Shown here piece after piece: positions 1,379 through 42,562 of a stretch of 64,000 nt of DNA. Below the pieces are notes generated by a model that saw only the letters and a list, made by a program, of their open reading frames with translations, did no database searches and had not been told where the DNA came from. The translations under genes were made by a program, and so were the position numbers. The stretch is from Blastocatellia bacterium. Its GTDB lineage: Bacteria; Acidobacteriota; Blastocatellia; UBA7656. Location of the stretch: NCBI GenBank assembly GCA_046565505.1, contig JBKHYJ010000015.1, positions 13,600-77,599 of the forward strand, written 5' to 3'. Position 1 is the first letter of the stretch; each line of letters starts with the position of its first letter.

Positions 1379-2173
1379 CTAAGGCGTATCGATAATCTCG
1401 ATGGTCGAATCGAATGGCGGGCGGCCGAATGATTCCCATGCATTACCGCCGCGCAGGAATAGCTCCATCCACCTGATCTCTTCGCCCTCTCGATTGGTCC
1501 AGCCGCTGCTGCCGGGCGCGAAAGCCAGTTGACCGGGCCTGACGGAAAAGCTGCCATCGCTCACTATTGCTTCCCGCTCCGCGTCCCTGATTCGCAGGCG
1601 AAGCGCGGAGCCGGGGCGGGCCTTTATCTTACCCGCCTTGAAGGTAGTCTTCAGGTTGCCATACCCGTCGATGTAAGCGATACGGTTCTCCGGCACGTCG
1701 GCTATCTGCGAGCGGTCTACCTCCTCGGCCAGCGCGTCAGGTTGCCCGAGCGCGATGGCGCCAGCGGCTTTGGGGAAAAGGTCGCGCGAGCGAAACTGTG
1801 ACCCCTCGGCAGGCACGGCCGCCCACCTCAACTCTTCGGCCGCGTCGCGGACGAACGAGAACGCATGGCCGGCGCTGACCCCTATGACGCGCACGCCCGT
1901 GGGCAAGCGCGCGAAAGCGAGGCGCTCGCCGGCATTCTCTTCGCGCGCACGTTCGTCATCTTCGCGCGGGGCCACGTTGTGGTAAATGATCGTCCCCGTG
2001 GGCGCTTCATTTAGCCCGAGCTGCGCGACGCAGAATCCGGCGGCAAGCGTAGAGAACGCGGGCACGGGCGTCAGCACGGGCTCGGCGTCCGGCACGTAAA
2101 GATTTATGCGCTGCACGACCTCCGCGAAGGCGAGGTCGCCAGGCCCGTAATCGGCTATGATGTGGATTAACAT
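1379..2173 (-). CDS. SAM hydroxide adenosyltransferase (DUF62, fluorinase/chlorinase-like fold)
   Basis: ORF 1379..2296, trimmed to the internal Met (MLIHIIADYGPGDLAFAEV) that is preceded by a CCAGGAGG RBS. N-terminal and C-terminal conservation is typical of the DUF62/SalL/FlA family. Confidence 0.7.
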   Translation of the reverse strand: MLIHIIADYGPGDLAFAEVVQRINLYVPDAEPVLTPVPAFSTLAAGFCVAQLGLNEAPTGTIIYHNVAPREDDERAREENAGERLAFARLPTGVRVIGVSAGHAFSFVRDAAEELRWAAVPAEGSQFRSRDLFPKAAGAIALGQPDALAEEVDRSQIADVPENRIAYIDGYGNLKTTFKAGKIKARPGSALRLRIRDAEREAIVSDGSFSVRPGQLAFAPGSSGWTNREGEEIRWMELFLRGGNAWESFGRPPFDSTIEIIDTP

Positions 2174-2468
2174 TTCGCCTCCTGGTCGTTCAAAGGTACG
2201 CGGGCTTGTGGCCGCGCGTCCGAGAGACTTGATTGGCAGCAAGGGGCGAGCCAAAGCCATGGAGGCATGAGATTGGCCGGCGCCGGTGACGGTCAACCGG
2301 CGAGGCGAGCCCTGAAAACGGGTAACGCTCAGGCGCGGCTACTGCACGCTTCCAGGGCTTACGGTGATGACGCCGCGTTTCCCGATGTCACTCTCGGTGC
2401 ACGGCCCGAGGCTTGTTGACCATGCCCCAGGAGGCTTCTTAAATGGCCCCGAGGTCATCGGCGGCGGC

Positions 2469-3023
2469 TTATTCCTGCCCCTTTTCAAACTTCAAAGCGG
2501 CGGAGTTCATACAGTAACGCAGGTGCGTGGGCTTCGGGCCGTCCTCGAACACGTGCCCGAGGTGTGCGTCGCACCTGCTGCACAACGCTTCCACGCGGCG
2601 CATGCCGTAGCTGTTATCCGTCTTCTCCGTGACTCTCTCTCTATCGAGCGGCGCATAAAAGCTGGGCCATCCGGTCCCGGAATCGAATTTCGTGTCTGAG
2701 CTGAATAGCTCCTGGCCGCAGCATACGCACTTGTAGAGACCTTTCTCGTGCGAGTCCCAGTATTCACCCGTGAAAGGTCTCTCGGTCCCATGAAGGCGCG
2801 CGACCTCGTACTGCTCCGGCGTAAGCTCCTCGCGCCACTCCTCGTCGGTCTTCACAACTTTATCGGTCATCTTTGATCCTTTCCGTTCGCTTGAATGATT
2901 TGCCCCCGGTGTTTGAATGCCCTTCTCGCCTGAATCCGCCCCGCGACCGCCGGCGCCCATTCGTACGGCGGCGGCGACCGAGGCCATGATTAAGCACGCC
3001 ATCAGCGCGGCGATAAGTCTCAT
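2469..3023 (-). CDS. msrB: peptide methionine sulfoxide reductase MsrB with N-terminal signal peptide
   Basis: Carries the two CxxC pairs (CVCCGQELF ... [12 protein letters not shown]) and the RYCMNSAAL active site. A hydrophobic N-terminus suggests export. Confidence 0.85.
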
Positions 3024-3143
3024 CCGTTCTGCTCCGTCTTCATTTTGGAACTTCTTCTAAAGGGGCGGCCGCCCCCTACGGGCGAAGCCTGTTCCGTCGG
3101 GGAGTCGGATAGTGCGACGGGCGGCGTTTCCGCACACCGCGCA

Positions 3144-5027
3144 TCAAGCGAACTCCGCGAGCTCCGCCCAACGATCCACGTCATTATCCAACTGCTGCTT
3201 GAGCAGCCCCAGTTCCGTATAGAGGGCCTGTACGACTACGAAATCGCTGGCCGATTCCGCCAGCCGGCGCTCTAGCTCGCCCTTCTTCCTTTCGGCCGCC
3301 TCGATCCTCTTCTCTAACTCCTCGAACTCCCGGCGCTCTTTGTAAGAGAGCTTGCGCGCGCCCGCCGATTGCCTTGCGGCCGTGGGCGGTTTCGACGCCC
3401 TCCCCGCTTCGCCCGCCCCGGCCCCGTCGAGCGCCCGCGCTTCGAGGAACGCGCTGTAGTTGCCGGGGTACTCCCTCACGCTGCCGTCGCCGTCGAGGCG
3501 GAAGATGTGCTCGGCCGTGCGGTCGAGAAAATAGCGGTCGTGGCTCACCACTATTAAACACCCGGCGAACGAGTCGAGGTATTCCTCCAGCCGGACGAGG
3601 GTATGAATGTCGAGGTCGTTGGTCGGCTCGTCCAGCAGCAAGACGTTCGGCGCGCCCATCAGAATCCTGAGCAGGTAGAGCCGCCGCCGCTCGCCGCCCG
3701 ACAGCCGCCCTATCACGTCGTACTGTGTCGAGGGCGGGAACATGAACTTCTCTAACATCTGGCTCGCCGTGACGTACTGCCCGTCGGCGGTCTCGACCCT
3801 TTCGGCCACTTCGCGTATGTAATCAATCACGCGCCCGGCGGCGTCCAGCTCCCTGTTCTCCTGGTCGTAGTAGCCGATGACGATTGTCTGCCCCTTCTCG
3901 ACGCGCCCCCCGTCGGGCTCGACCCGGCCCGCGATCATGTCGAGCAGGGTCGTCTTGCCCGACCCATTCGGGCCGATGACGCCTATGCGGTCACCGCGCT
4001 TGAGGCTGTAGCTGAACCCTTCGACCAGCTTTTTATCGCCATATGATTTAGAGACGCGGTCGAGTTCGAGAATCTTCTTGCCCATCCGGCTGAAGCCCAC
4101 TGAGATGTCAAGCTCCTGCCGGGATGACTCCGCCGGCTGTCTCATGAGTTCTTCCGCGCGCTCCACGCGGGCCTTTTGCTTCGTCGTGCGCGCCTTCGCC
4201 CCGCGCCTGAGCCAGGCAAGCTCGCGCCGCATCAGCGCCTCACGTTTCTCGCTGGCCGCCGCGCGCGCGGCCTCCTGCTCCTCTTTCTTTTCGACGTAGT
4301 AGGCGTAATTGCCCGCGAAGCTCTGCACCCTGCCCCTGTCGATTTCGACGATGCGTCCCGTCACCCGGTCCAGGAAGTAGCGGTCGTGAGTTACGAGCAG
4401 CAGCGCGCCCGCGTGTCGCGCGAGGTACGTTTCAAGCCACGCGACTGTGTCCGCGTCGAGGTGATTCGTAGGCTCATCGAGTATGAGCAGGTCCGGGGCC
4501 GAGACGAGCGCGTGTGCGAGCGCAACCCGCTTGCGCTGCCCGCCGGAGAGAGCGCCCATCGGCGCGGCGGTGTCCGTGATGCCGAGTTGGGTCAGGACCG
4601 TCTTGGCATTCGTTTCAAGGCTCCAGCCCCCCGCGGATTCGAGCTGGTGGGCGAGCTTCGCGACGCGGTCGAGCAGCCGCGCGTCGCCCCCGCCGCCCGC
4701 CGAGAGGTCGCGGCAGGCCGCCTCGTAATCATGCAGCAACCGCATGGCCTCGTTGCTGGCGGTGAACACCCTGTCGAGCACGGTCTCGTTCGGGTCGAAC
4801 GGGGGGTCCTGCGGCAGGTAAGCCACCACGCGCTGGCTCGCCATGACGGCCCGCCCCGTGTCCGGCTGCTCGCGCCCGGCGATTATGCGTAACAGCGTAG
4901 ACTTGCCCGAGCCGTTTATGCCGATGATGCCGACCTTCTCGCCATCGTCGAGCCCGAAAGTCACGCCCTCAAACAGCGGCCTGACGCCGTAACTCTTGCT
5001 GACATCTTCGAGAGAAATAATATTCAT
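3144..5027 (-). CDS. ABC-F family ATPase (two tandem ABC domains, no transmembrane domain)
   Basis: Two Walker A motifs (GINGSGKST, GPNGSGKTT) and two LSGG signature motifs. The inter-domain linker is rich in Arg/Glu, and there is a C-terminal coiled coil. Confidence 0.85.
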   Translation of the reverse strand: MNIISLEDVSKSYGVRPLFEGVTFGLDDGEKVGIIGINGSGKSTLLRIIAGREQPDTGRAVMASQRVVAYLPQDPPFDPNETVLDRVFTASNEAMRLLHDYEAACRDLSAGGGGDARLLDRVAKLAHQLESAGGWSLETNAKTVLTQLGITDTAAPMGALSGGQRKRVALAHALVSAPDLLILDEPTNHLDADTVAWLETYLARHAGALLLVTHDRYFLDRVTGRIVEIDRGRVQSFAGNYAYYVEKKEEQEAARAAASEKREALMRRELAWLRRGAKARTTKQKARVERAEELMRQPAESSRQELDISVGFSRMGKKILELDRVSKSYGDKKLVEGFSYSLKRGDRIGVIGPNGSGKTTLLDMIAGRVEPDGGRVEKGQTIVIGYYDQENRELDAAGRVIDYIREVAERVETADGQYVTASQMLEKFMFPPSTQYDVIGRLSGGERRRLYLLRILMGAPNVLLLDEPTNDLDIHTLVRLEEYLDSFAGCLIVVSHDRYFLDRTAEHIFRLDGDGSVREYPGNYSAFLEARALDGAGAGEAGRASKPPTAARQSAGARKLSYKERREFEELEKRIEAAERKKGELERRLAESASDFVVVQALYTELGLLKQQLDNDVDRWAELAEFA

Positions 5028-8804: not shown

Positions 8805-11800
8805 CTACCGGACTCTTTCGGCCGCCGTCGCAGGCCTGCCCTTAGCCGGGTCTGCCCGGATGGGGTCGAGCCTCCTTTCGTCGAGCAGCTTGTTGAAGCG
8901 CGACAGGTCGATCTTAATCGTTTCGTTCAGCCTGCCGTGGAGCTTCTCCAACTGCGCCGAAAGCTCGCGAAAAACGACGTAGGATTGATCCGTGGGCCGG
9001 CCGTCGCCCGTCTCTATGGACCGCCTGAGCGCCGCCATCTGGTTGTTGAGCTTGATGGGGAAATTCAATGGGTCCTGACTGCTCTGGTTGCGGACCTGGT
9101 AGACCTCTTCCTCGACCTCGCTGAGCTTGCGCGCGAGCGCGTCGCCGGCTTCGGTGACAGTCTTATCGCCTGCCTTTGCCTTATCCGAGCGGTCTTTTAT
9201 CTGCTTCTTGATGTCGCGAATGAGGATGACCATTTCGTTCGCTTCGCTCGTCTTGTCTCGAACCTTAATCGCGAGGTCGAACTGTTTCGCAAGGTCGTCT
9301 TCCGTCACGCCCGTGAGCCGCGGGTCTTTCTTCACGACGAGGGTGCGGGTCTGCGTCTGACCGTTCGCCGTGAGCCGCACCTGGTAAGTGCCCGGCGGCG
9401 CGAGCGGCCCCGCCTCCGCTCGCGCGCCCCAAAGAATCATCCCCGGAAACGTCGCGGCCCCGGCGTAGCGTAAGTCCCAGGTGAAACGGTTCGCGCCCGC
9501 CTTTCTCGATGGCGGGCGCGGAGCAGGCGGCCCGAACGATTCGCCCCCGGCGTCTTCCGGGGCCTTCTTGTCGTCGCCGGCCGCGCCCGTGAAGGTCGAA
9601 ACGGTCTGACCCTTTGAGTCAAGGATCTCTATCGTAACTTTGTCGGCCGGCTGCTTCAGGTAATAGTCTATGACGGCTTGATCGACGGACCGGACCGCCG
9701 CGCGCGGCTGGAAGAGATGGACGGCGGCCGCCGCCACCTCCGGCGTAAGCTGCCTGAGCGTCGCTATGTCGTCGAGTATGTAAAAAGACCGCCCGTGCGT
9801 GGCGATAACGAGGTCATTTTCTTCGACCACCAGGTCGGGCACCTGCGTGTCGGGCAGGTTGAGCGCGAGCGTCTGCCAGTTGGCCCCGTCGTCGAATGAA
9901 ACGTAGATGCCATGCTCCGTGCCCGCGTAGAGTAGCCCCACGCGTTTCGTGTCCTCGCGCACGGCGTGGACGTAATCGTCCGCGCCTATGCCGTTGACGA
10001 TCTTTTTCCACGTCTTGCCGTAATCATCCGTCTTGTATAGGTAGGGCGCGCGGTCGTCCAACTGATACCGCTTTGCCGCGAGGTAGGCAGTGCCCGCTTT
10101 ATGCGGGGAGGCTTCGATCAGGCTTACGCGGCTGAATTCGGGCAGGCCGGGTGGTGTGACCTTCTCCCACCGCCTGCCGCCGTCGCGCGTGATGTAAACG
10201 AGTCCGTCGTCGGAGCCCGTCCAGATGGTGTTGGCGTCGTGTTTCGACGGCGCGATGGTGAAAATGGTCCCGTAGATTTCGGGCCCGTTCTGGTCTTTGG
10301 TGATCGGGCCGCCGGAATCGCCGAGAGTCTTCGGGTCGGCGCGCGTCAGGTCGGGGCTGATCCGCTCCCAGCTCTGCCCGTCGCTTGTCGTCTTCCACAG
10401 GTGCTGCGACGAGGTGTAAAGCGTGTTGGGGTCGCGCGGCGAAAAAACTATCGGGAACGTCCACTGCCACCGCTCCTTGAGCGCGCTCGCGGGCATCCCC
10501 GAAAAGAATAGGGGATAAACCTGTATGTCCCGCGTGTGCCCCGTCGTCCGGTCGAACCGCGTCAGCAGCGCGCCCTGGCTCCCCGCGTAGAACAGGTTCG
10601 GGTCGGTAGGGTGCGGGGCGATGTAGCCGCTCTCGCCGCCTCCGACCGCGTACAGTGAGGGCACGGCGCGCTGGCCCCGCCCGCCATCGCTCGGCACGCA
10701 GACAGTCGAGTTGTCCTGCTGCGCGCCGCACACGTGGTAAGGGAAATCCCTGGTCGTCGCGACGTGGTAAAGCTGAGCCGTCGGGTAGCCCTGGCCGGTC
10801 CAGGATTCCCCCCCGTTGATTGATACGTTCGAGCCTCCATCGTTGCTGTTAATCATTCGCCTGGGGTTGTCCGGCGCGATCCACAGGTCATGATTGTCCC
10901 CATGAGGGACCCGTATGGTCGCGTAGGTCTTCCCGCCGTCGGTCGATTTGTAGAAGCCCGTGTTGAGAACGTAAACGGTGTCGCGCGCCTTCGGGTCCGC
11001 GTATATGCGCGAGTAGTAGAACGCGCGCTGCCGCAAGCGCCGGTCTTCGCTCACCCTCTTCCACGTTGCGCCCGCGTCATCCGAGCTGAAAACGCCTCCG
11101 TCTTCGGCCTCGACTATCGCGTAGACGCGGGCGGAATCGATTCCCGAAACCGAGACGCCTATCTTGCCGACGACGCCTTTCGGTAGCCCCGCGTTGCGGG
11201 TTATCTCCGCCCAGTTGTCGCCGCCGTCGGTTGATTTGAACAGGCCGCTTCCCGGCCCGCCGCTCGATAGCGTCCAGGGGGTGCGGTACGCGTCCCAGAT
11301 GGAGGCGAACAGCACCTGCGGGTTTTGGGGGTCGAAGCACAGATCGACAGCCCCCGCGCGGTCGCTGCGAAACAGGACCTTCTGCCAGGACTTGCCACCA
11401 TCCCTGGAGCGGAAGACGCCGCGCTCGTCGTTCGGCCCGAACGGGTGGCCGAGGGCGGCCACGTACACTATGTCGGGATTAGTCGGATGAACGCGTACGC
11501 GCGCGACCGCGTGCGTGTCGGAAAGCCCCGCGTGAGCCCACGTCTTGCCAGAGTCCGTCGATTTGTACACCCCTTCGCCTTGCATGATGTTCCCGCGCAG
11601 CGCCACCTCGCCCATACCTATGTAGACGACGTTCGGGTTCGATTGCGAGACCGCGACCGCGCCGACCGAAGAGCTTTTAATCTTGCCGTCAGTCACGGGA
11701 CGCCAGGTCAGCCCGCCATCGTCAGTCTTCCACAGCCCGCCGCCGACCGCGCCGAAGTAATACTCGAAGGGGCGGGCCGCGCTGCCGGCCGAGGCTATCG

Positions 11801-12002
11801 AGCGGCCCCCGCGGTTCGGGCCTACGTTGCGCCATCTGAGCGCGTTGAAAAGCGCCGCGTCATATGTCTTGCGGGCCTCCGGCGAAGTGGGTCGAGCCGG
11901 TGAAGGCGATTGAGCGACTGATGGCGAATTGAGGTTTGCGACCAGCGCGAGCGCCGCGAGGAAGTTCGTCAGGCGCGAGATTTGATTGAAGACGTGACGC
12001 AT
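8805..12002 (-). CDS. exported VPS10/sortilin-domain, BNR (Asp-box) repeat protein with C-terminal coiled-coil extension
   Basis: N-terminal signal peptide. There are multiple S-x-D-x-G-x-T-W Asp-box repeats (STDSGKTW, SRDGGKSW, STDGGDNW, SDDAGATW, STDGGKTY, TRDGGRRWEKV, TDDYGKTW). The last roughly 200 aa are charged and helical. Confidence 0.8.
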   Translation of the reverse strand: MRHVFNQISRLTNFLAALALVANLNSPSVAQSPSPARPTSPEARKTYDAALFNALRWRNVGPNRGGRSIASAGSAARPFEYYFGAVGGGLWKTDDGGLTWRPVTDGKIKSSSVGAVAVSQSNPNVVYIGMGEVALRGNIMQGEGVYKSTDSGKTWAHAGLSDTHAVARVRVHPTNPDIVYVAALGHPFGPNDERGVFRSRDGGKSWQKVLFRSDRAGAVDLCFDPQNPQVLFASIWDAYRTPWTLSSGGPGSGLFKSTDGGDNWAEITRNAGLPKGVVGKIGVSVSGIDSARVYAIVEAEDGGVFSSDDAGATWKRVSEDRRLRQRAFYYSRIYADPKARDTVYVLNTGFYKSTDGGKTYATIRVPHGDNHDLWIAPDNPRRMINSNDGGSNVSINGGESWTGQGYPTAQLYHVATTRDFPYHVCGAQQDNSTVCVPSDGGRGQRAVPSLYAVGGGESGYIAPHPTDPNLFYAGSQGALLTRFDRTTGHTRDIQVYPLFFSGMPASALKERWQWTFPIVFSPRDPNTLYTSSQHLWKTTSDGQSWERISPDLTRADPKTLGDSGGPITKDQNGPEIYGTIFTIAPSKHDANTIWTGSDDGLVYITRDGGRRWEKVTPPGLPEFSRVSLIEASPHKAGTAYLAAKRYQLDDRAPYLYKTDDYGKTWKKIVNGIGADDYVHAVREDTKRVGLLYAGTEHGIYVSFDDGANWQTLALNLPDTQVPDLVVEENDLVIATHGRSFYILDDIATLRQLTPEVAAAAVHLFQPRAAVRSVDQAVIDYYLKQPADKVTIEILDSKGQTVSTFTGAAGDDKKAPEDAGGESFGPPAPRPPSRKAGANRFTWDLRYAGAATFPGMILWGARAEAGPLAPPGTYQVRLTANGQTQTRTLVVKKDPRLTGVTEDDLAKQFDLAIKVRDKTSEANEMVILIRDIKKQIKDRSDKAKAGDKTVTEAGDALARKLSEVEEEVYQVRNQSSQDPLNFPIKLNNQMAALRRSIETGDGRPTDQSYVVFRELSAQLEKLHGRLNETIKIDLSRFNKLLDERRLDPIRADPAKGRPATAAERVR

Positions 12003-12366: not shown

Positions 12367-13575
12367 ATGGACGCATCCTTCGGCGCGATGACTGCGGCGA
12401 GGCCCGCCGCCGCGACCCGACCGCTCGCCATCCCCTGGTTCGTTTACGCGGCCCTGTTCGGCTCGACCAGCATCATCATAGGGGGCGAGTGGGACATATC
12501 CTGGCACCAGAGCATCGGCCGCGACACCTTCTGGTCGCCGCCGCACTTAGCCATCTACCTCGGCGGAGTCGTAGCGGGGCTGGCCTCGGCCTGGGTCGTG
12601 CTAAAGACGACTTTCAAAGGCAGCGCCGAAGAGCGCGCTGAAGGGGTGCGGCTCTGGGGGTTCACCGGGCCGCTCGGCGCGTTCCTCTGCATATGGGGCG
12701 CGCTCGCCATGCTCACATCCGCGCCGTTCGACGACTGGTGGCACAATGCGTATGGCCTGGACACGGAGATTCTAAGCCCGCCTCACGTCGTGCTCGCGCT
12801 CGGCATCGGCGTGATACAGCTCGGGGCGATAGTCACCGCGCTCGCACTCCAGAACCGGAACGAGCGGCAAGCCGAGGCCGGGGACGCGGCAGCCATGCGG
12901 CGGCGCACTCTGCTGCGGCTGATGTACGTCTACGCAGCGGGGATGTTGTTGAAGAGCGCGTTCGTCATGGCATGGTCTTATATGAATCGCGTACTCATGC
13001 ACAGCTCGATCTTTTATGAAGTGGGCTGTCTCGTGCTCCCGCTCTTCATCATCCCCGCGGCCCGCGCTTCGAGGCTGCGCTGGCCGGCGGCGGCGACCGC
13101 CGCCGTCTACATGTCCCTGTCGCTGGCGCTGGTTTGGGTTCTGCCTCTGTTCCCGGCCGAGCCGAAACTCGGCCCGGTCAGGCAGCACGTCACGCACCTG
13201 ATACCGCTGGAGTTCCCGCTGCTGCTCGTGATCCCGGCCTTCGCAATCGATTTGGTGATGCGCCGCCTGGGCGAGAAGCGCGACTGGCTGCTGTCGGTCG
13301 CCCTGGGGGTGGCGTTCTTCGCCGCGCTGCTCGCCGCGCAGTGGCCGTTCGGGGATTTTTTGATGTCGCCGCTCTCGCGCAACTGGGTGTTCGCCACGGA
13401 CCAGTTCGGCTATTACGTAAGCCCCGACTGGTACAACTTCCGCCACGCCTTCTACCCCTGGGACGCCAGCCGTTCGGCCCTGGTAGTCGGCTTGCTCACG
13501 GCCATACCGCTCGGGGTCGTGTCGGCACGAATAGCGCTGTGGTGGGGCAACTGGATGAGGAGTGTTAAGAGATGA
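12367..13575 (+). CDS. hypothetical polytopic membrane protein (about 10 TM), first gene of a 2-gene operon
   Basis: AAGGAGA RBS. Hydrophobicity pattern. Its stop overlaps the next start (ATGA at 13572-13575). Confidence 0.55.
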   Translation: MDASFGAMTAARPAAATRPLAIPWFVYAALFGSTSIIIGGEWDISWHQSIGRDTFWSPPHLAIYLGGVVAGLASAWVVLKTTFKGSAEERAEGVRLWGFTGPLGAFLCIWGALAMLTSAPFDDWWHNAYGLDTEILSPPHVVLALGIGVIQLGAIVTALALQNRNERQAEAGDAAAMRRRTLLRLMYVYAAGMLLKSAFVMAWSYMNRVLMHSSIFYEVGCLVLPLFIIPAARASRLRWPAAATAAVYMSLSLALVWVLPLFPAEPKLGPVRQHVTHLIPLEFPLLLVIPAFAIDLVMRRLGEKRDWLLSVALGVAFFAALLAAQWPFGDFLMSPLSRNWVFATDQFGYYVSPDWYNFRHAFYPWDASRSALVVGLLTAIPLGVVSARIALWWGNWMRSVKR

Positions 13576-15179
13576 GGCGTCGCTTATTCCCGTGCGTAGC
13601 GTTGGCGCTGGCGCTCGCGGGCGGCCCGGCCGCGCTCGCGCACGTCGGCAGCCCCGACATTTTATTTGAAGGTAAAGCCGGGCCTTATAACCTGCTGGTC
13701 AGCATCCAACCGCCCGACGTCGTGCCGGGCATCGCGCGGATTTCCGTCCACGCCGAAAGCGGCGACCTCAGCCGCGTGACGGTCCAGCCCATCTACTTCC
13801 GCACGGGGGGCGATGGCGCCCCGCGCCCCGACGAGGCCGAGCGGGCTCATGGGGACCCCCGCCTTTTCGATGGCAAGCTGTGGCTGATGGAGTTCGGCTC
13901 GTCCAGCGTGAGGGTGCGCGCGGAGGGCGCGGCCGGGTCAGGCGAAGTGATCGTGCCCGTCCCGGCGGTCGCAACTGCGCGGCGCGGAATTGATACAAAG
14001 CTCGGCGTGCTGCTCGGCTGTCTCGGCCTGTTTCTGTTCGCGGGAGCCGTCGCCGTCGTCGGCGTCTGCGCACGCGAAGCCATCCTGCCGCCCGGCTCTG
14101 TGGTGACGAGGGGCGACCGCGCCCGCGCGCGAAAAATCATGCTCATCGCCGTCGCGTTGATCGCCGTCGCGATAATCTTCGGCGGCAAATGGTGGCGCTA
14201 TGTTGATGGCCGCTACCTTGAACATATGTACAAGCCCATCGGGCTGAGCGCGACCGTTCGGGCGGAAGGCCTGAGCCGGGCGCTGCGGCTGGAGATGAAT
14301 AACACGGAGTGGCTCGACCGCCAGTCGGGAGATTTGATTCCAGATCATGGGAAGCTGATGCACCTGTTCCTGGTGCGCGAACCGTCGCTCGACTCATTCG
14401 CGCACCTGCACCCGACCAGGTCGGACGCGGACGCATTCGAGATCGCGCTGCCGCCGATACCCGAAGGCCGGTACAGGGTTTATGCGGACGTGGTCCACAG
14501 GAACGGGCTGACAGAAACGCTCACGGCGGAGACGGACCTGCCGCCCGCTTCGGGCGTTCAGCAATCGCCCGCTTCCGCTTACAGCAGCGCCGACCCTGAC
14601 GATTCATGGCTAGTTTACGGCGGCGGAGCGCAGGCGGAGCAGAGACTGGAGGATGGCTCGACAATGACGTGGGAGCGCGATGGCGGCCGGCCGCTCGTAG
14701 CCGGCCGTTTAGAGTCGTTGCGCTTCTTTGTGAAGTCGCCCGGGGGGGAGCCCTCCGCGCTTGAGCCTTACATGGGGATGCTCGGTCACGCCGTCGTCAT
14801 GCGAGATGATGGCGCGGTCTTCGTGCACGTTCACCCCGTGGGCACGGTCTCTATGGCATCTCAACAAGCGTTCGTCGAGCGCGTGGGCGGGGCCGTCACT
14901 GACAAAGGCGAAGGCGGCATGAGCGCGGCAGCCGCCGGCAAGGACGCGGGCGGCGACTCCCGGCATATGAGCGGCATGGAGCATTCGTCTGGAATGAGCG
15001 CGGCGGCCCCTTCGGCCCACGCGGGCGTGCGCGGCCCTTCTGAGGGCGCGGCCGCCGACGCGAGGGGCACAGTCTCTTTCCCATACTCTTTCCCCAAACC
15101 GGGAAACTATAGCATCTGGGTGCAGGTCAAGCGCGGCGGGCGCGTGCTGACGGGCGTGTACGATGTGAGCGTGCTTTGA
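13572..15179 (+). CDS. exported bitopic/periplasmic protein, putative metal (copper)-binding; His at mature N-terminus, Met/His-rich C-terminal tail
   Basis: Signal peptide ...ALALAGGPAALA|HVGSPD. It has two central TM helices, then a second soluble domain carrying the H-x-H motif (SFAHLHP). The tail reads MSAAAAGKDAGGDSRHMSGMEHSSGMSAAAPSAH. Confidence 0.55.
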   Translation: MRRRLFPCVALALALAGGPAALAHVGSPDILFEGKAGPYNLLVSIQPPDVVPGIARISVHAESGDLSRVTVQPIYFRTGGDGAPRPDEAERAHGDPRLFDGKLWLMEFGSSSVRVRAEGAAGSGEVIVPVPAVATARRGIDTKLGVLLGCLGLFLFAGAVAVVGVCAREAILPPGSVVTRGDRARARKIMLIAVALIAVAIIFGGKWWRYVDGRYLEHMYKPIGLSATVRAEGLSRALRLEMNNTEWLDRQSGDLIPDHGKLMHLFLVREPSLDSFAHLHPTRSDADAFEIALPPIPEGRYRVYADVVHRNGLTETLTAETDLPPASGVQQSPASAYSSADPDDSWLVYGGGAQAEQRLEDGSTMTWERDGGRPLVAGRLESLRFFVKSPGGEPSALEPYMGMLGHAVVMRDDGAVFVHVHPVGTVSMASQQAFVERVGGAVTDKGEGGMSAAAAGKDAGGDSRHMSGMEHSSGMSAAAPSAHAGVRGPSEGAAADARGTVSFPYSFPKPGNYSIWVQVKRGGRVLTGVYDVSVL

Positions 15180-17250: not shown

Positions 17251-18162
17251 TCATAGAATCTTTTTGCCGAGCGCGGAGAGTATCATCTCGACTCCGAGCA
17301 GCGCGGTCTGGTTGGCCGTGTCGTAAAGCGGGTTGACTTCGGTTAGCTCGACCGACAGCACGCGGCCGGAGTCGGCTATCTTCTCCATAGCGAAGTGGCT
17401 CTCGCGGTAAGTCGCGCCGCCGCGCTCCGGCGTGCCGACTCCGGGGGCGTAAAACGGGTCTATGAAATCCATGTCCATCGTGACGTGAATCCCGGCGGTG
17501 TTTCGTGAGGCGATCTCGACCGCCTCCTCAATCACCTTTGCCATGCCGCGCTCGTCAACTTCCGTCATGGTGAAGACGCGGATGTTGAGATTCTTTAGCA
17601 GCTCGCGCTCTCCCGGGTCAACCGAGCGCGCGCCTATGATGGCCGTGTTTTGAGGGAGGACCTTCGGCGCAAAGCCCGCGACGTGCGTCAGCTCTTTTGC
17701 TCCATAGCCTAGCAGGGCGGCCAGTGGCATTCCATGAATGTTGCCCGAAGGGGTCGTGTCGGGCGTGTTGGTGTCGGCGTGCGCGTCCAGCCAGATGACG
17801 CCGATTCGCTCGTTCCGCTTGCGGCGAAATGACGCGACGCCCGCGACGCTCCCGATAGCGATCGAATGGTCGCCGCCGAGGATGACCGGCATCGCCCCCT
17901 CTTCGAGGGCCGCTTCGACCATCGCGGCCAACTCTTCGGAGGCCGCTGCTATCTCGGGCAAGTAGCGGGCGCGCGTATTAGTCTGGCTCACGGCCTCCGG
18001 CGGATGTACGTGCACGTTGCCCGCGTCCGTAACCTCATAGCCGAGCCGCGTTATCGCCTGGTTCAGGTCGGCGATGCGAATAGCTGATGGCCCCATATCG
18101 ACCCCGCGCCGCCCCGCGCCTAAATCCATCGGCACGCCGATTATCTTAACCTTTCTATTCAT
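17251..18162 (-). CDS. arginase/agmatinase-family ureohydrolase (arginase-like)
   Basis: Mn-binding motifs [15 protein letters not shown] and SVDMDFIDP. Confidence 0.8.
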
Positions 18163-18348
18163 AAGACCTCCTATTCATTCTCCCACTCCACCTGCGGAGT
18201 GGCAAGACAGGCGGCGACCGATGCAGGCGGGCCGCCCCCGCCTGACGCCGCCGCCCATGACGCGGTGTCGCGCGGCGACGCATGCAAATAAAAAGAGGCC
18301 GCCGCCGGCAGCCTCTATGAGGTAGGAGGGTGAAAAATGAAATGGAGC

Positions 18349-19539
18349 TTAACGCCCGATAGAAGCCTGCTCGGGCTCCGCGCCCGGCATAATCCCATAG
18401 CTATCGGCGAGATCAGCCACCTTGATCGCGGCCAAAATCTTAGGCACGTAATCGCGCGTCTCTTTCGGGAGAAGCTGCTTTTCGTATAACTCCCAGAAGT
18501 TCGCGCGGCCGTTCTTGACTATCGCTTCCATCACTCTAGGCTCACCTGAATTGTAGGCGGCCATCGCGAGCGCCCAATCGCCGAAGATCGTGTAAAGGTC
18601 GTGCAGGTACTGTGCCGCCACGCGCGTCTGCTTCGTAGGGTCAGACCTCTCGTCGTTCCCCGCCTCTACGGCAAGGCCATACTCCAGCGCCGTCTTGGGA
18701 ATGAATTGCCAGAGTCCCCCGGCCGCGGCGGGCGACACCGCGTTGGGATTCCAGACGCTCTCGACGTGCGCCAGCCACACCAAGTCTTCAGGCAACCCCG
18801 CCCTGCGGAATTCTGCGCGCGCCATCCTCAAATAAGCGTTGCTGCGTTCGATGCCTATGGTCATCGTCCTGCGCCCGCCCGGCGTTGACGTGTACCAATT
18901 AACCCAGCGTTCGATCGCAGGATTAGTGCTGTAGGCAACGTCGCCGACCGTCAAACGTGATGACCGGGCGGAGATGACCTGCGATATGCCAGCTTCCGCG
19001 GACAGCGTATCTACGTCCGCTCGCGGCTCCGCCTTCGGCGCGGCTTGAGACTCCGCTATCATCGCGCCTTCCGCGAACTGCTTCAAATCCTCCGGCGATT
19101 GCTCGGTGTAAGCTGCCTCCTCGCCCTTCCGGGTCTGAGGCGGGTTGATTTTTCGAGAGGCCTTGACCGGGCGAATGCCCGAGCCATTCTCATGCCTGGC
19201 CGCCTCCCCTTGAATCCGTTTTTGGACTCGGGCGTAATACTCCGCGAGTTGTGAATTATTCTCGGCCCCCTGCGCAAGAATGTTTATCGCCTTCTCGAAA
19301 TCGAGGCGCTGACGTGTGAGGCCGCGCGGGGCTTTCTCTGGGGTCGGCTCTGCCACCGCTCCTTCGCCCGCGGCCGGCATGCCCAATTGCAGTAATGATC
19401 TTTCATGACGCGGCGCGAAAAAGAGCATGGCGGCTCCCATGACGGCCGTGGCGATAACTGTTGAAATCAGTCTCTTTATCAGAGATTTTCCAGAGATTGC
19501 TTTTTCAGAATTCGGGGCAAAAAAATGATTGAGCTTCAT
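18349..19539 (-). CDS. membrane-anchored lytic transglycosylase (SLT domain)
   Basis: Catalytic region LAHVESVWNPNAVSPAAAGGLWQFIP. ORF 18349..19680, trimmed to the Met preceding a signal-anchor (MKLNHFFAP...). There is a long low-complexity linker. Confidence 0.75.
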   Translation of the reverse strand: MKLNHFFAPNSEKAISGKSLIKRLISTVIATAVMGAAMLFFAPRHERSLLQLGMPAAGEGAVAEPTPEKAPRGLTRQRLDFEKAINILAQGAENNSQLAEYYARVQKRIQGEAARHENGSGIRPVKASRKINPPQTRKGEEAAYTEQSPEDLKQFAEGAMIAESQAAPKAEPRADVDTLSAEAGISQVISARSSRLTVGDVAYSTNPAIERWVNWYTSTPGGRRTMTIGIERSNAYLRMARAEFRRAGLPEDLVWLAHVESVWNPNAVSPAAAGGLWQFIPKTALEYGLAVEAGNDERSDPTKQTRVAAQYLHDLYTIFGDWALAMAAYNSGEPRVMEAIVKNGRANFWELYEKQLLPKETRDYVPKILAAIKVADLADSYGIMPGAEPEQASIGR

Positions 19540-20054
19540 CGACACTCCCACCAGGCAGAAACCGGACTCGCCGGGTTGTTTATCGTTAAACTGATGTTCT
19601 TCAGTGGCTTGATTTATGGGATGTAAGCCGAGCTTCGTTAAGGTTGGAGGACGCGATGAAGCTTCGGAGACCCCACCCATGCACCTTGTTCGTTATTTCT
19701 ACATCACTTAACTTCCGAATTAATATTATCAAGGTTACCTTTTCGCGTCGAGATGTGACGCCCGTTTGCAAGGAAAATGCAAGAGAGCGATCCTTGGCAA
19801 TGTCAGGCCCAGTATTGAGCAAGCTTGCCGCAATAGTTCTCAAGGATGTTCGGCGTACTTAAATCAGGTATAAAGTGCGGGGTCAGATGCTTGGTCGCCG
19901 CGGTGCTGATCGTCGGGCTAATAGCAGGGGTGATGTGGTCGTAATTCCGGCGGTCGGAAGCCTCTGGGAAGACGCGCTAGGCGCTGGTCTACTTCTAACA
20001 TCTACCTGCGCGAGTGGGTGCACGTCGTCAGACCGCGCCTCGCCCCGGCTTCAA

Positions 20055-20750
20055 TTACAACTCGCTCAATTCTTTCAAGGCCCTCTTATTAACTATAGAT
20101 ATCCTCTTGCGGCCGATGTCGATGAGCCTTTGTGACCTCATGGAGTCGAGTATGATCGTCACAGTCTCTCTGTAAACCCCTAACCTCTCCGCTATGTCTT
20201 CGTGAGTCACCCCGAGGATTGTAGACCCTTCGCGCGCGAGGTCCAGAAGCAGCGCCGCTATTCTGGAATCTGACGACTGAAAGCATGACCTGTAGTGCTC
20301 AGCCTCAACATCGGCAAGCCTGCGGCCTATCTTCTCGACTATCGGGACGGGCGCGGCCTCTAGCCATTGCTTCACCATATTAACGTCCATCACCGCCACG
20401 GTGGCCCCGGACGTTCCCGTGATCGCCCTGGTCCCCAGCATTGTCTGGCCTAGCAGCGGCATCTCCCCGAACAGCATGCCGATGGTCAGCTCCTTCACCA
20501 TGAAGTCGTGGCGCGTGTGCCAGATTTCAACCAGCCCGTGTCTGAGCAGGAACAATTCATCAGTGCCGCGTATAATACGGTGCGCATTGAACGATTGAGT
20601 CGGTAGTTTTTCAAAGATCCGAGCCTCGGGCAGGTCATCGACGCGGAGGTATCCGACCTTTTGCGCGAGGGCGGCGGAGGCGAGGGCTTTCATTCTTTGT
20701 GTTAGCTCGTGCTTTTTTACTCTGCTCTGTGCCGACGATCTTTTGCTCAT
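20055..20750 (-). CDS. Crp/Fnr-family transcriptional regulator
   Basis: An N-terminal cNMP-binding-like beta-roll and a C-terminal HTH (HEDIAERLGVYRETVTIILDSMR). The gene is lower in GC than its flanks. Confidence 0.75.
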   Translation of the reverse strand: MSKRSSAQSRVKKHELTQRMKALASAALAQKVGYLRVDDLPEARIFEKLPTQSFNAHRIIRGTDELFLLRHGLVEIWHTRHDFMVKELTIGMLFGEMPLLGQTMLGTRAITGTSGATVAVMDVNMVKQWLEAAPVPIVEKIGRRLADVEAEHYRSCFQSSDSRIAALLLDLAREGSTILGVTHEDIAERLGVYRETVTIILDSMRSQRLIDIGRKRISIVNKRALKELSEL

Positions 20751-21099
20751 GGCTGTCTCAGCCCACCTCCGTTTTAGGTGACATCACGCCGGCCGCTTGC
20801 GCGGGCGCTTGAGGGAGGACACCTGTCTCAAACGCCCCTTCTGCCGGGTCCGCCCGGAGCCAAAAAAGAGAGGGGTCGCGCGCAGTTAGGTTTCCCTGGG
20901 TACTTCAACTTTGCTGCGCGCGCCCCTCCCCAGCCGCGAAAGGAGGAATCTACGTCTCAAGGTCTTGAATTTTCGAGGCCGCGGCCTCGTAAGCTCAGGC
21001 TGATGAAAAAATATAGGAGATGTGGAATAGGTAGTGTTACACGATTCCACTCTGCGCCTGCGCCGCCCCGCAACGGCGTGTCCAGGGTTAAGGATAAAA

Positions 21100-21540
21100 C
21101 GGTATAAGTGAGTTACTCACTTCTCGCCAGTAACCTTACCCTGATGCATTCCGCCATTCATTCCGCGCCCCGGCGTCTGACGGTCTGCCGAGCGGTCCTC
21201 ACGGTCCGCCCGGTCCTGGCGGCCATTTCAAACGTTCACGTTCTCGCTCAGTCATGGCTTTTGATGACGAGGGGGCGTAGCGCTTCGTGGCCCCTATCCG
21301 CTCCGCCACTTCGGCAGTACGCTCCCCCTCTCCAGCCGCAGCCCCACCCTCTGCGGCCCGATAACATTTCAAACGAACACACGGCCTGTCAGCACAAGTT
21401 AAGCCGCTCCAGGGCCCCGAGCCGGGGCCGCGCAACTGATAGGCTGTGAGGCGTTGCCGCCTCTGCCCCTCCCGCCTCGGGACCGGGACGCAAGAATGCC
21501 CCGAGGCTTCGGCACCCATCCGCCCAATGGTCATTGAGCC
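21100..21540 (+). other. GC-rich structured non-coding island (candidate ncRNA) inside a 1.2-kb ORF-free, otherwise AT-rich spacer
   Basis: No protein-like ORF. It contains two C(UUCG)G tetraloop-type hairpins on the + strand (ggcTTCGgc, ccaCTTCGGcag) and several other short GC stems. It is flanked by AT-rich DNA. Confidence 0.15.
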
Positions 21541-21964
21541 GCCTTAAAGGGCGAATAAATTAATGGAGTCATGCTTCATGAAAAATCACTTCATGATTGA
21601 GCCGTAACAATCCATGTGATACAAAACCTACTTGAGCGGAAATAGAAGTGAGCGGGACATGATGCTCGCCGCCACACGCCCTCGGTAGATTCGGCGAGCA
21701 CTCGTCCGGCAGGCCATTAGTCGCTCCGGCGATACCTGCCGGCGGTAATGAGGCAGGCATCAGTCTATCGCCCATGTTGTTTTCGGACAGTTGAGGCTCA
21801 CCGTATGCGCGGGCGCGTCGGCGCCGCACGTTAAACGCATATCTTTTGCAGAGATCGAACATACCTGAAAGCAATTTGTCTACTGGATTAATTATTACTC
21901 AAATACCCCGAGCGCAGGCATATTACTGTACAATGATTTTCGTGTCAATGAAAATCTGCAACGT

Positions 21965-21972
21965 TGTATAAT
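21965..21972 (+). promoter_or_regulatory. extended -10 box (TGTATAAT) for the XRE regulator/cobQ transcription unit
   Basis: TGnTATAAT lies 24 nt upstream of the ATG at 21996, in an AT-rich leader. Confidence 0.3.
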
Positions 21973-21995
21973 AACAATGAAAGGCGCGGTCATTT

Positions 21996-22463
21996 ATGGG
22001 CAAGTACGTCAAAGAGAACCTCAGCCAGTTGGTGAGGAGGGTTATCAGGGAGAAGAAGCTTTCGCTCCGCCAAGTTCAAGAACTGTCTGGAGGGCAGATC
22101 GAAAAGAGCTACATCAGCAGGATTATGACGGGCAACGTCAAAAACATCACGCTCGAAAAGCTCGTCGCTCTGGCGCGCGGCCTCGACATGGACCCGCATA
22201 TACTCTTCAGCGCCTACTACTTCGACCCGCGCCCCGCGGCCGGCGAGCCGCTAGACGTGATCGAGTTGAGCCTTACCGAGTTCACCGCTTTGATGCAGAA
22301 GGTCGCGGTAAACCCGAAGTTCGTCGAGATTGTGGAAGAGGTGGTCCAGCTACACCCGGGAGAACAGACGACTGCCATGCTCAACTATGCGATGTACCTA
22401 AACGGGCGCAAGCGAGCCGCACGCCGCGGAAAGGAGAGCCTGCCGCGCCAGGCTACGGAGTGA
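21996..22463 (+). CDS. XRE-family (Cro/CI-type HTH) transcriptional regulator with about 80-aa C-terminal extension
   Basis: The HTH reads LSLRQVQELSGGQIEKSYISRIMTG. It is preceded by a GAAAGG RBS and an extended -10 box (TGTATAAT). Confidence 0.7.
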   Translation: MGKYVKENLSQLVRRVIREKKLSLRQVQELSGGQIEKSYISRIMTGNVKNITLEKLVALARGLDMDPHILFSAYYFDPRPAAGEPLDVIELSLTEFTALMQKVAVNPKFVEIVEEVVQLHPGEQTTAMLNYAMYLNGRKRAARRGKESLPRQATE

Positions 22464-22526
22464 TTCTATGAATTGCAAAAACATCGCTCCCGCCCGCCCC
22501 AACTCAATAGCGTTTAGACTCGGCAG

Positions 22527-23993
22527 GTGCGTATGCGGCCGATCATGATCCAGGCGACAAGCTCGGACGCCGGGAAGACGACGATAGTTGCCGGCCTTTG
22601 TCGTCTCTTCGCAAACAGGGGCTACAAGGTTGCCCCATTCAAGTCGCAGAACATGGCGCTGAACTCTTACGTCACCGAAAATGGCGAAGAGATCGCTCGG
22701 GCGACGGCGGTCCAGGCGTTCGGCGCAAGACAGCAGCCCATCGTTCACATGAACCCATTGCTTCTGAAGCCCAAGGCGGACGATGTTTCACAGTTGATCG
22801 TCCACGGGAAGGCGCTTATGGACGTCACCGCGAAGGAATACTTTCTGTCCGGCGCTCTGCAAGGCCTGAAGCTCGGGGCCATACGCGAATCCATAAGCTA
22901 TCTCAGACAGCACTATGACCTCATCATCGCCGAAGGCGCGGGCAGCTGCGCCGAGCCTAACCTCAGGGAGTTGGATGTTGTCAACATGGGCCTCGCCCAT
23001 GAACTGCGGGCGAGGGTCTTCGTCGTGACGGACATTGACAAGGGCGGCGCCTTCGCCGACATCCTGGGGTCGCTGAAGGTCATGGAGATCGTAAAGCCTG
23101 ATGACATCGGACTGATCGCGGGGTTTATCGTTAACAAATTCCGCGGGGACCTCGACGTGCTGCGGCCCGGCTTGGACTTCATCGAAAGGCACACGAGATT
23201 CCCTGTGCTGGGCGTACTGCCCTTCATAAACGACCTCAGATTAGAGGAGGAGGACCGTGTTAAGAAATACCTGTGCGAACACCCCGAAGTGGACATCGCG
23301 GTCATCTACCTCCCGCACATATCCAACGCCAATGACTTCGATTTTCTGGCCTGCGAGCAAAACGTCCGCGTCCGGTTCGTGAAGTCCGCCGATTCACTAG
23401 GAGTCCCCGACGCGATAATCATTCCAGGGACCAAGAATACGGTATGGGACTTGGATTATATGAGAAGGGTAGGGCTTGAGCGGGCCATTAAAGAATCAGC
23501 TAGCTCGACGCCGGTCGTAGGTATTTGCGGCGGGTATCAGATGCTCGGACACACGCTCCGCGATGACGGTCACCTCGAATCCGGGCTCGGCACGATTGAG
23601 GGGATAGGGCTTCTGGACATCACGGTAGAGTTCCTCCCGAACAAGATTGTCACTAACAGAAAATACAGACTCGCCGATGCCAATATTTTTGGCGCCGTGG
23701 GGACGCTTTCAGGCTACGAAATCCATAGCGGTTCGGTGCGGTATGGGAACTGCGAGCCGATGTTCGTCTATGAGGGCGGGTGCGACGGCGCGATCCATCC
23801 CGAGAGGCTTATCTTCGGGACTTTCATTCATGACGTATTCAGCAACCGTGCGTTCACCCGGGCATTCGTGAATCACCTGCGGCAGAAAAAAGGGCTGCCC
23901 GCGCTCACGGTCGAGATGCCCGGGCCTAGAGACTGCGCGGAGGACAGTTACGAGAGGCTGGCCTCGGTGCTCGAACAGTGCGCCTCATTCTGA
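22527..23993 (+). CDS. cobQ: cobyric acid synthase CobQ/CbiP-like amidotransferase (orphan; no other cob genes in window)
   Basis: An N-terminal CobQ/CobB/MinD/ParA P-loop domain (MIQATSSDAGKTTIVAGLCRLF...APFKSQNM) plus a C-terminal GATase domain (ICGGYQMLG ... H...). Confidence 0.8.
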   Translation: MRMRPIMIQATSSDAGKTTIVAGLCRLFANRGYKVAPFKSQNMALNSYVTENGEEIARATAVQAFGARQQPIVHMNPLLLKPKADDVSQLIVHGKALMDVTAKEYFLSGALQGLKLGAIRESISYLRQHYDLIIAEGAGSCAEPNLRELDVVNMGLAHELRARVFVVTDIDKGGAFADILGSLKVMEIVKPDDIGLIAGFIVNKFRGDLDVLRPGLDFIERHTRFPVLGVLPFINDLRLEEEDRVKKYLCEHPEVDIAVIYLPHISNANDFDFLACEQNVRVRFVKSADSLGVPDAIIIPGTKNTVWDLDYMRRVGLERAIKESASSTPVVGICGGYQMLGHTLRDDGHLESGLGTIEGIGLLDITVEFLPNKIVTNRKYRLADANIFGAVGTLSGYEIHSGSVRYGNCEPMFVYEGGCDGAIHPERLIFGTFIHDVFSNRAFTRAFVNHLRQKKGLPALTVEMPGPRDCAEDSYERLASVLEQCASF

Positions 23994-24322
23994 GCCGCGA
24001 ATGCGGAAGCGGATAAAAGCAGTAAGCGTAGGGGCGAGTGGCGGCCGGGATCAGGCAGACTGAAGCAGTGGCAAGCCGGGCGCCCCCGCTGAGAAGTTTT
24101 GTGGTAATTCAGAGAGCCCAACGACGCATGTACTGAAGGGCCGCGTCGTTGGGCGGGCGGCAGCAGCTTGAGGTTACTTAGTTCGATTTCGCGCACCCCG
24201 GACTTGCCGGGGGTTCCTGACCCAGAGGAATTCGTGTATAATTCCGGTCGCAGGGTATAAGCACTTCGCACCGCACCAAAGATCGAGTAGTTCGAGGCAT
24301 TCTTAACTAACAAGGAGGGGCC

Positions 24323-37560: not shown

Positions 37561-37563
37561 ACG

Positions 37564-41203: not shown

Positions 41204-41222
41204 CGCCGCGGAGGGATCAGAA

Positions 41223-42556: not shown

Positions 42557-42562
42557 AACAAA

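Follow-up and report, generated by a model that had tools for sequence, protein, structure and literature searches.

What could be the function of two overlapping bacterial genes whose products match no described protein family? The question is posed by a gene pair, denoted here ORF A and ORF B (ORF, open reading frame), in a 64,000-nucleotide stretch of contig JBKHYJ010000015.1 of a Blastocatellia bacterium (assembly GCA_046565505.1, positions 13,600 to 77,599 of the forward strand); this whole stretch is called the window below, and all features of the pair are on its plus strand. ORF A (12367–13575) encodes a polytopic membrane protein of 402 amino acids (aa) with about ten helices and a predicted N-in/C-in topology, and ORF B (13572–15179) encodes a protein of 535 aa for which a signal peptide, three periplasmic β-sandwiches and a transmembrane (TM) hairpin are predicted. 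The two genes share the tetranucleotide ATGA (13572–13575), in which the ATG of ORF B (13572–13574) overlaps the TGA of ORF A (13573–13575), exactly as an initial sequence-only reading of this DNA had noticed. By exact-sequence look-up, the products are MFP5260584.1 and MFP5260585.1, both named "hypothetical protein", from a Blastocatellia metagenome-assembled genome (MAG). Neither has a match above threshold in Pfam or NCBIfam, and phmmer searches of both against the sequences in PDB yielded no match. The sequence-only reading took the pair for a candidate copper-handling module composed of a 10-TM protein without a recognisable family and an exported protein with a histidine-brace-like N-terminus. 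We show here, by comparison of sequence profiles and structures, that the first four helices of ORF A are remote homologs of the helical bundle that carries the CuC and CuD sites in PmoC and AmoC, the C subunits of particulate methane monooxygenase (pMMO) and of ammonia monooxygenase (AMO), respectively; thus, the statement that ORF A belongs to no recognisable family holds with respect to the family thresholds but is otherwise superseded.

The PmoC/AmoC-like module covers residues ~24–170 of ORF A (12436–12876) and was delineated using hhalign, a profile search of PDB, Foldseek and hidden Markov model (HMM) searches. It contains two motifs. Motif 1, WDISWHxSIGRDTFWSPPH (12493–12546), includes D43, H47, R52, D53 and H60 and aligns with the CuC site of PmoC; motif 2, FDDWWHNAYGLDxxILSPPH (12730–12786), includes D122, H126 and H140 and aligns with the CuD site. 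All eight residues are invariant in 81 of the 81 ORF A homologs. In PmoC, the CuC ligands are Asp156, His160 and His173, with Arg165 nearby, and the CuD ligands are Asn227, His231 and His245 (PMC12576850); the pocket that holds the two sites, which are ~5.7 Å apart, is the active site of pMMO (PMC11725843). In the hmmsearch and hhalign alignments, D43, H47, R52 and H60 fall on Asp156, His160, Arg165 and His173, that is, on the CuC ligands together with the hydrogen-bonding arginine. D122, H126 and H140 fall on Asn227, His231 and His245, such that both histidines of CuD are matched and the asparagine is replaced by an invariant aspartate. Every PmoC ligand position is therefore occupied in ORF A by an invariant Asp or His, and the second-sphere Arg-Asp pair (R52/D53) is invariant as well. 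The spacing within each motif is the same in ORF A and PmoC, whereas the motifs themselves are separated by 79 residues in ORF A and by 71 in PmoC.

Five lines of evidence, which partly depend on one another, link ORF A to AmoC/PmoC. The Pfam AmoC model (PF04896) matches ORF A with 11.8 bits and an E-value of 0.16 over residues 29–67, exactly where motif 1 is located, and gives sub-threshold matches to 13 of the 81 homologs, with the best E-value of 8.7e-5. When the profile of the 81 homologs was compared to all PDB sequences, the sole match was AmoC (9cl6_C, E 0.0014), with DisWhksiGRDtfwspph of the ORF A family placed opposite DASWHQVIIRDTSFTPSH. For the next comparison, we gathered 34 C subunits from canonical C-A-B operons in metagenomes, using a scan with a degenerate DNA motif; hhalign aligned the ORF A family with these over 104 columns (residues 40–155) with a probability of 87% and a P-value of 4.1e-6, and both triads were in register. 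An AmoC/PmoC HMM built from these C subunits was run against the 3140 six-frame ORFs of 80 loci that carry an ORF A relative; at least the 40 top-ranking matches were ORF A homologs, and 77 of the 80 were among its 90 matches (best E 8.2e-7). Finally, in a Foldseek comparison, ORF A produced local matches to the AmoC structures 9pxf_G and 9leg_C (probability 0.87 and 0.84) over 124–139 columns at 21–22% identity and a root-mean-square deviation (rmsd) of 4.5–4.8 Å. These two are the only matches that combine a probability above 0.8 with a low rmsd; PmoC 9cl2_Ba was matched with a probability of 0.47 and an rmsd of 8.1 Å. There was no global Foldseek match for ORF A, nor any match in a viral library.

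The structure of ORF A is an AlphaFold2 (AF2) model with a mean predicted local distance difference test score (pLDDT) of 91.6, a predicted template modelling score (pTM) of 0.89 and about ten helices. The density of Lys plus Arg (K+R) is higher in the odd-numbered loops of ORF A; this charge distribution supports an N-in/C-in topology and, consequently, the placement of both triads at the periplasmic boundary of the membrane, as in PmoC. Outside the PmoC-like module, the C-terminal half (13173–13392, residues ~270–342) has its own set of invariant residues on the periplasmic side, namely, H212, Y217, the LPLFPAEPKLGP loop, D295 and N339. The segment FPLLLxxPAxAID of ORF A can be aligned with a segment of PmoA, in a weak, non-significant hhalign match (P 0.016). 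The possibility that ORF A is a fusion of PmoC and PmoA was considered and dropped, given the negative hhalign and HMM tests against PmoA. CopD (PF05425), HupE/UreJ and CtaG were not among the 25 families listed for the ORF A homologs at E-values up to 1.

The sequence-only reading further predicted that the ORF B product is exported and, once cleaved, starts with a histidine; this prediction gains strength from the alignment of 85 homologs. The N-terminus, MRRRLFPCVALALALAGGPAALA|HVGSP, consists of an n-region, an h-region and an A-x-A site, and the putative signal peptide occupies residues 1–23 (13572–13640), with cleavage after ALA according to the rule that requires small residues at positions −1 and −3. 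The residue preceding the histidine is Ala in 78 homologs, Gly in 6 and Ser in 1; position −3 is occupied by A, L, V, S, G or T; the median length upstream of the histidine is 24; and position +1 is His in all 85. Because the residues at −1 and −3 are small or aliphatic and the histidine is invariant, cleavage at ALA|H, which we infer from the signal-peptidase context, is well supported. The AF2 confidence of ORF B is below 50 over residues 17–23 and reaches ~95 from residue 30 on.

In the AF2 model of ORF B, which was built from the 85-sequence alignment (pLDDT 84, pTM 0.80), the signal-peptide helix is followed by a β-sandwich, two long TM helices and two further β-sandwiches. The N-terminal β-sandwich (13641–13976) consists of seven strands (residues 30–132), and its invariant ligand candidates are His24 (codon 13641–13643), W104 and M106 only, with no second invariant histidine in this domain. 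The TM hairpin (13995–14225) is formed by helices 142–169 and 180–218, and the loop between them contains, on average, 4.35 K+R residues; this K/R-rich turn is presumably cytoplasmic, and therefore all three β domains are predicted to face the periplasm. The first domain after the hairpin, D2 (14241–14540, strands 224–323), includes the invariant residues D258, H259, H264, H278 and H280, which lie in the motif region PDHGKLMH...FAHLHP (14343–14411). The early description of two TM helices followed by a second periplasmic domain with an H-x-H motif (FAHLHP) thus agrees with the modelled helices and with the invariance of H278 and H280. The last domain, D3 (14604–15176, residues 345–534), contains the invariant M403, H406, H419 and H421, along with M401, which is conserved in at least 90% of the homologs; its motif region is PYMGMxGH...FVHVHP (14772–14834). 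The two post-hairpin domains repeat one another: hhalign matches D2 to D3 with a probability of 78% and a P-value of 1.9e-5, aligning GKLMHLFLV..FAHLHP with GMLGHAVVM..FVHVHP, and each of the two contains an invariant H...HxH cluster and additional conserved His/Met residues.

D3 is interrupted by a helix (428–443) and by a disordered segment (448–495, pLDDT below 50) that corresponds to the Met/His-rich region of the protein (14913–15056) and includes RHMSGMEHSSGMSAAAPSAH. This is the region that had been described as a Met/His/Ser-rich tail, and it is indeed enriched, with Met and His accounting for 13% of its residues vs 4.7% in the rest of ORF B. The enrichment is conserved compositionally: the length of the segment varies from 10 to 88 aa across the homologs, all 85 of which have at least two Met/His residues there, and H480 is at least 90% conserved. 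It is not a tail, however, but an internal loop, given that it is followed by ~35 highly conserved residues, VSFPYxFPxPGxYxxWVQVK included, that form the last β-strands of the domain.

Neither the ORF B query nor the isolated N-terminal domains matched the CopC, DUF1775 or cupredoxin models of Pfam at E-values up to 10, and the isolated domains of the query and its homologs retrieved, in the same E-value range, noise such as PKD, FKBP and DUF2271. Sub-threshold CopC matches were found in 9 of the 85 homologs (best E 0.02) and weak sub-threshold YtkA matches in a few family members; DUF1775 was not among the 25 families listed for the homologs. The ORF B profile produced only spurious matches, with E-values above 0.5, in the PDB sequences. 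A whole-chain Foldseek search of PDB retrieved generic tandem Ig/FN3 folds with TM-scores below 0.2 and is uninformative because the query consists of several domains. An assignment of the N-terminal domain to CopC, YcnI/DUF1775 or cupredoxins, along the lines of the comparison made from sequence alone, is accordingly not supported. We also considered ORF B as a homolog of PmoB (PF04744) and abandoned this idea: hhalign gave a probability of 2.6% for the whole protein and no more than 10.7% for single domains, a PmoB HMM showed no enrichment among the ORFs of the 80 loci, and PF04744 is absent among the Pfam families listed, so that the resemblance to PmoB is one of architecture alone.

Both families are large. 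Among 8000 scored candidates for each, we found more than 7444 homologs of ORF A and more than 3395 homologs of ORF B, none of which has a Pfam domain and all of which bear "hypothetical" names in their sources. An exhaustive profile search (E up to 1e-3) delineated 2795 clusters of ORF A sequences at 50% identity, and a scan of one genome per species detected ORF A relatives in at least 580 species. The locus statistics rest on the best 80 loci with an ORF A relative, which come from Acidobacteriota (Blastocatellia, Vicinamibacterales, Bryobacteraceae, Terriglobia and Thermoanaerobaculia), Gemmatimonadota/Longimicrobia and Bacteroidota. Isolates with loci of this type include Flexithrix dorotheae DSM 6795, Marivirga lumbricoides, Mucilaginibacter sp. 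dw_454 and Telluribacter, in which the RefSeq name is, again, "hypothetical protein"; the pair is WP_020527702.1/WP_020527701.1 in Flexithrix dorotheae and WP_214072336.1/WP_214072335.1 in Mucilaginibacter sp. dw_454.

An ORF B homolog is located immediately 3' of ORF A, on the same strand, in 76 of the 80 loci, or in 76 of the 79 informative ones once a locus that ends at a contig edge is set aside; thus, the two genes that had been proposed as a unit are, indeed, adjacent across three phyla. Of the 73 loci that were scored, 32 allow the 4-nucleotide overlap; for the majority of the remainder, the closest candidate start codon of ORF B is found no more than ~25 nucleotides from the ORF A stop. 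In the window, no terminator above background was found between ORF A and ORF B, and a scan of the upstream region for promoters, terminators and operators detected a single weak sigma-70-like site and no inverted repeat. Coupling or co-transcription of the two genes is shown, as is their joint inheritance in the three phyla. That ORF A can exist alone is seen from three loci (L135, L168 and L176), which belong to one Cytophagales MAG and two Bryobacteraceae MAGs and carry it without an ORF B homolog within up to 6 kb on either side.

All-against-all clustering of the flanking ORFs of the 80 loci revealed no third conserved neighbour: the next clusters after A and B were antisense shadow ORFs, followed by a generic histidine-kinase cluster in 11 loci. 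In several Gemmatimonadales (L169, 8699–11067; L170; L173, 3301–4818), a sensor histidine kinase is encoded directly 3' of ORF B, followed in L169 by an OmpR-type response regulator, and may be a lineage-specific regulator of the pair. Two loci (L003, 9311–9970, and L004, 7794–8450) contain, downstream of the ORF A homolog (P0236, 51% identity), a collapsed ORF B-like gene of 219 aa that has no signal peptide with His1, no TM hairpin and no D2, with strands of the N-terminal domain fused to the D3 motifs; these genes look like deletion derivatives. On a metagenome contig (L079, Ga0209345_10003456, 428–3756), there are three tandem amoC/pmoC-like genes of 260–264 aa each, and an A/B-like pair follows the third one only.

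Within the window itself, the neighbours of the pair are unrelated to it: a Sortilin-Vps10/BNR protein upstream on the other strand and pdxJ downstream. The former (8805–12002, minus strand, 1065 aa) is a secreted BNR-repeat protein that is oriented divergently to the pair and is not conserved beside it elsewhere. A segment at 18001–24000 has a G+C content of 0.565–0.577 vs ~0.63 in the remaining window, which may point to a separate origin of this region. A cluster at 34085–43567, ~19 kb away from the pair, resembles an xoxFJG-like cluster combined with caa3 oxidase genes. It encodes a pyrroloquinoline quinone (PQQ)-dependent alcohol/methanol-type dehydrogenase (34085–35998), an SBP_bac_3 protein, a cytochrome c, a COX2-cytochrome c fusion, COX1, a Caa3_CtaG copper-insertion factor (41276–42556) and a β-propeller protein. 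In other genomes, no linkage of a cluster of this type to the pair was detected within 6 kb.

How, then, does the pair compare to known copper systems? With PmoC/AmoC, ORF A shares a four-helix TM bundle in which two triads of metal ligands are located at the leaflet facing the periplasm, the signature D-x3-H-x4-R-D-x6-H (CuC) and a second signature, [N/D]-x3-H-x13-H (CuD), where the Asn of PmoC is Asp in ORF A. PmoC and AmoC have six TM helices and ~250–290 aa, whereas ORF A has 402 aa and about ten helices, lacking the N-terminal helices of PmoC and adding six unrelated helices at the C-terminus. The PmoB post-signal-peptide histidine contributes its amino group and imidazole to the CuB site, and the H-x-H motif belongs to the N-terminal cupredoxin domain. 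ORF B resembles PmoB/AmoB in the succession of signal peptide, His, β-sandwich, two TM helices and β-sandwich, in the presence of an H-x-H motif and in the adjacency of its gene to that of a C-like subunit. The two differ in that the H-x-H of ORF B (H278/H280) lies in the post-TM domain D2 and is missing from the N-terminal domain, and in that ORF B has a third β-sandwich, extra His/Met clusters and the Met/His loop.

With the CopC/CopD and YcnI/YcnJ systems, the pair has in common an N-terminal-His β-sandwich that is paired with a polytopic membrane protein. In CopC, His1 acts together with Asp and His. YcnI has a mono-histidine brace (His1 and Glu) with a conserved Trp nearby (PMC8424229), and H24 and W104 are likewise invariant in the N-terminal domain of ORF B. 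Unlike CopC and YcnI, however, this domain has no second invariant His or Glu that would match the ligands of either protein, neither gene belongs to the respective Pfam families, ORF A does not resemble CopD, and ORF B consists of three domains and a TM hairpin. In the "anglerase" domains Ang-1/Ang-2, an Ig-like β-sandwich with an invariant N-terminal His is attached to HupE/UreJ-2 permeases and binds Cu(II) with nanomolar affinity via a mono-histidine brace (PMC12537917). The attachment of an N-terminal-His β-sandwich to a membrane protein is shared with our pair, whereas the HupE/UreJ-2 domain (PF13795) has no match in ORF B, no sequence similarity was detected, and the anglerase taxa are Pseudomonadota and Actinomycetota. 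Given the PmoC/AmoC match of ORF A and the unassigned N-terminal domain of ORF B, it is the copper membrane monooxygenase (CuMMO), through PmoC and a PmoB-like architecture, that comes closest among the known systems, rather than CopC/CopD or YcnI/YcnJ.

We lean, by a modest preference, towards the reading that ORF A and ORF B form a two-subunit, periplasm-facing membrane copper complex that is a distant relative of the pMMO/AMO core, with its enzymatic step a guess; that the pair forms a copper complex, whatever the complex does, appears fairly probable. The copper-handling two-gene module of the sequence-only reading survives in this form, with the conservation of the pair, the invariant N-terminal His, the invariant H-x-H and His/Met clusters, the compositionally conserved Met/His loop and the PmoC alignment in its favour, and is detached from the CopC/YcnI family to which it had been compared. 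In the proposed complex, the two Asp/His/His triads of ORF A, placed where the membrane borders on the periplasm, would bind one or two copper ions, which, if two, might be a few ångströms apart, as in PmoC. In the cleaved ORF B, His24 would chelate copper via its amino group and imidazole. Periplasmic Cu(I)/Cu(II) would be caught by the Met/His loop and the D2/D3 clusters, which would load the site in ORF A or keep it stable; the TM hairpin would anchor ORF B to ORF A in the way that PmoB is docked to PmoC/PmoA. We would further guess that the loaded centre uses O2 for redox chemistry, with a small or membrane-soluble molecule as the substrate, and that the six extra helices of ORF A replace PmoA. 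That the centre is enzymatic and does not just handle copper is a plausible proposition that falls somewhat short of probable; it is favoured by the fact that homology could be detected solely to a core that is catalytic, with both first-shell and second-shell residues retained, and by the apparent clustering of conserved polar ORF A residues at the periplasmic face. Still more doubtful is a bolder version, in which the pair would represent, within the copper membrane monooxygenase superfamily, a new and minimal branch with two subunits; here, an O2-activating, PmoC-type CuC/CuD centre would be completed by the six novel helices in place of PmoA and serviced by the PmoB-like N-terminal-His subunit, and the branch would be widespread in cultivable aerobic heterotrophs of the Bacteroidota, Acidobacteriota and Gemmatimonadota.

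Several observations weigh against this reading. Only 4 of the 10 ORF A helices align with PmoC/AmoC, and ORF A does not reach the gathering threshold of the Pfam AmoC model (26.7 bits). The CuD asparagine is Asp in ORF A, whereas in the 34 C subunits, the eight positions that we checked, including this Asn, are invariant, in part by construction because the scan pattern forced H160, R165, D166 and H173 (and left D156, N227, H231 and H245 free). Neither the C-terminal half of ORF A nor its vicinity yielded a PmoA-like sequence (2.8% probability in hhalign), and a PmoA HMM was not enriched among the ORFs of the 80 loci. No gene that would supply reductant or oxidise a product is conserved beside the pair, a situation not usually seen with catabolic monooxygenases. 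Loops rich in Met/His and a multiplicity of His/Met sites occur more typically in copper trafficking proteins than in enzymes, and triads of the Asp/His/His type can likewise hold Zn, Ni or Fe; signal-peptide cleavage, the formation of the complex and the proximity of His24 to other ligands are putative. Also unlike CuMMOs, ORF A lies outside a C-A-B operon, with neither PmoA-like nor PmoB-like sequences in the 80 loci, and it is found in heterotrophs of the Acidobacteriota, Gemmatimonadota and Bacteroidota rather than in methanotrophs or nitrifiers. From the partial alignment, the Pfam miss, the Asp in place of Asn, the lack of PmoA and the lack of a relation to PmoB, it follows that the pair falls outside the CuMMO family as defined, while having in common with it the homologous C-subunit core that binds the metal, along with a partner analogous to the B subunit.

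A rival reading is copper capture and trafficking without catalysis, which we consider rather unlikely: ORF B would be a tethered metallochaperone that collects periplasmic copper through His24, the Met/His loop and the D2/D3 sites and hands it to ORF A, and ORF A would import it, export it or deliver it to cuproproteins such as cytochrome oxidase. Such a role would fit the N-terminal-His β-sandwich, tethered or paired as in CopC/CopD, YcnI/YcnJ (PMC8424229) and Ang-1/Ang-2 (PMC12537917), the disordered Met/His-enriched loop, the several His/Met clusters, the stand-alone nature of a two-gene module with no metabolic neighbours in aerobic heterotrophs, and the weak sub-threshold CopC and YtkA matches in a few ORF B members. 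It sits less well with ORF A, for which the family searches showed no similarity to CopD, HupE/UreJ, CtaG or any permease and whose sole detectable relative, PmoC/AmoC, is no transporter; moreover, the conserved polar residues of ORF A appear to be located at the periplasmic face, without lining a transmembrane path, and no membership of ORF B in the CopC or DUF1775 families could be shown. That ORF B nevertheless belongs to the CopC, YcnI (DUF1775) or cupredoxin histidine-brace families, with ORF A as an unrelated novel partner, is very improbable. The invariant post-signal His, the predicted β-sandwich and the sub-threshold CopC hits in 9 of 85 homologs could be cited in favour of this affiliation, but the query and the isolated domains match none of these families even at E-values up to 10, the profile search of PDB sequences retrieved no such protein, the N-terminal domain lacks the second invariant His or Glu of the CopC or YcnI ligand sets, and ORF A is related to known proteins, AmoC/PmoC.

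The identity of the metal is a separate question. Asp/His/His triads and HxH clusters are not specific for copper, the N-terminal-His proteins recovered by signal-strapping include Ni binders (PMC12537917), and the surroundings of the pair yielded neither a regulator or chaperone for copper nor an operator, so that a site for Zn, Ni, Fe or Mn, or a non-redox role, such as metal sensing, zinc-dependent hydrolysis in the membrane or a structural function in the envelope, could be envisaged. This we regard as improbable, given that the homologous sites of pMMO/AMO hold copper in native membranes (PMC12576850, PMC11725843), that an N-terminal His and Met-rich loops point to copper and that Met401 and Met403 suggest Cu(I).

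Our searches of Pfam, NCBIfam, the source annotations and the searchable literature uncovered no description of this family, and no "PmoC-like" or "AmoC-like" family report or histidine-brace survey that covers ORF A/B. What appears to be new here is a copper membrane protein distantly of the PmoC type whose architecture and partner are both new, and two large families of "hypothetical proteins" gain names and testable residues. The enzymes pMMO and AMO control methane and nitrogen fluxes, and are hard to study because they are fragile, consist of multiple subunits and are restricted to slow-growing specialists. In the ORF A/B family, both copper triads are kept in a different, simpler, two-gene context, and the hosts include culturable isolates. 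The family could thus reveal what an ancestral PmoC-type centre does and could become a tractable, possibly ancestral, model of the contested pMMO/AMO copper site; it could also bring to light, in soil bacteria that are abundant, an activity dependent on copper that has gone unrecognised or a route of copper acquisition.

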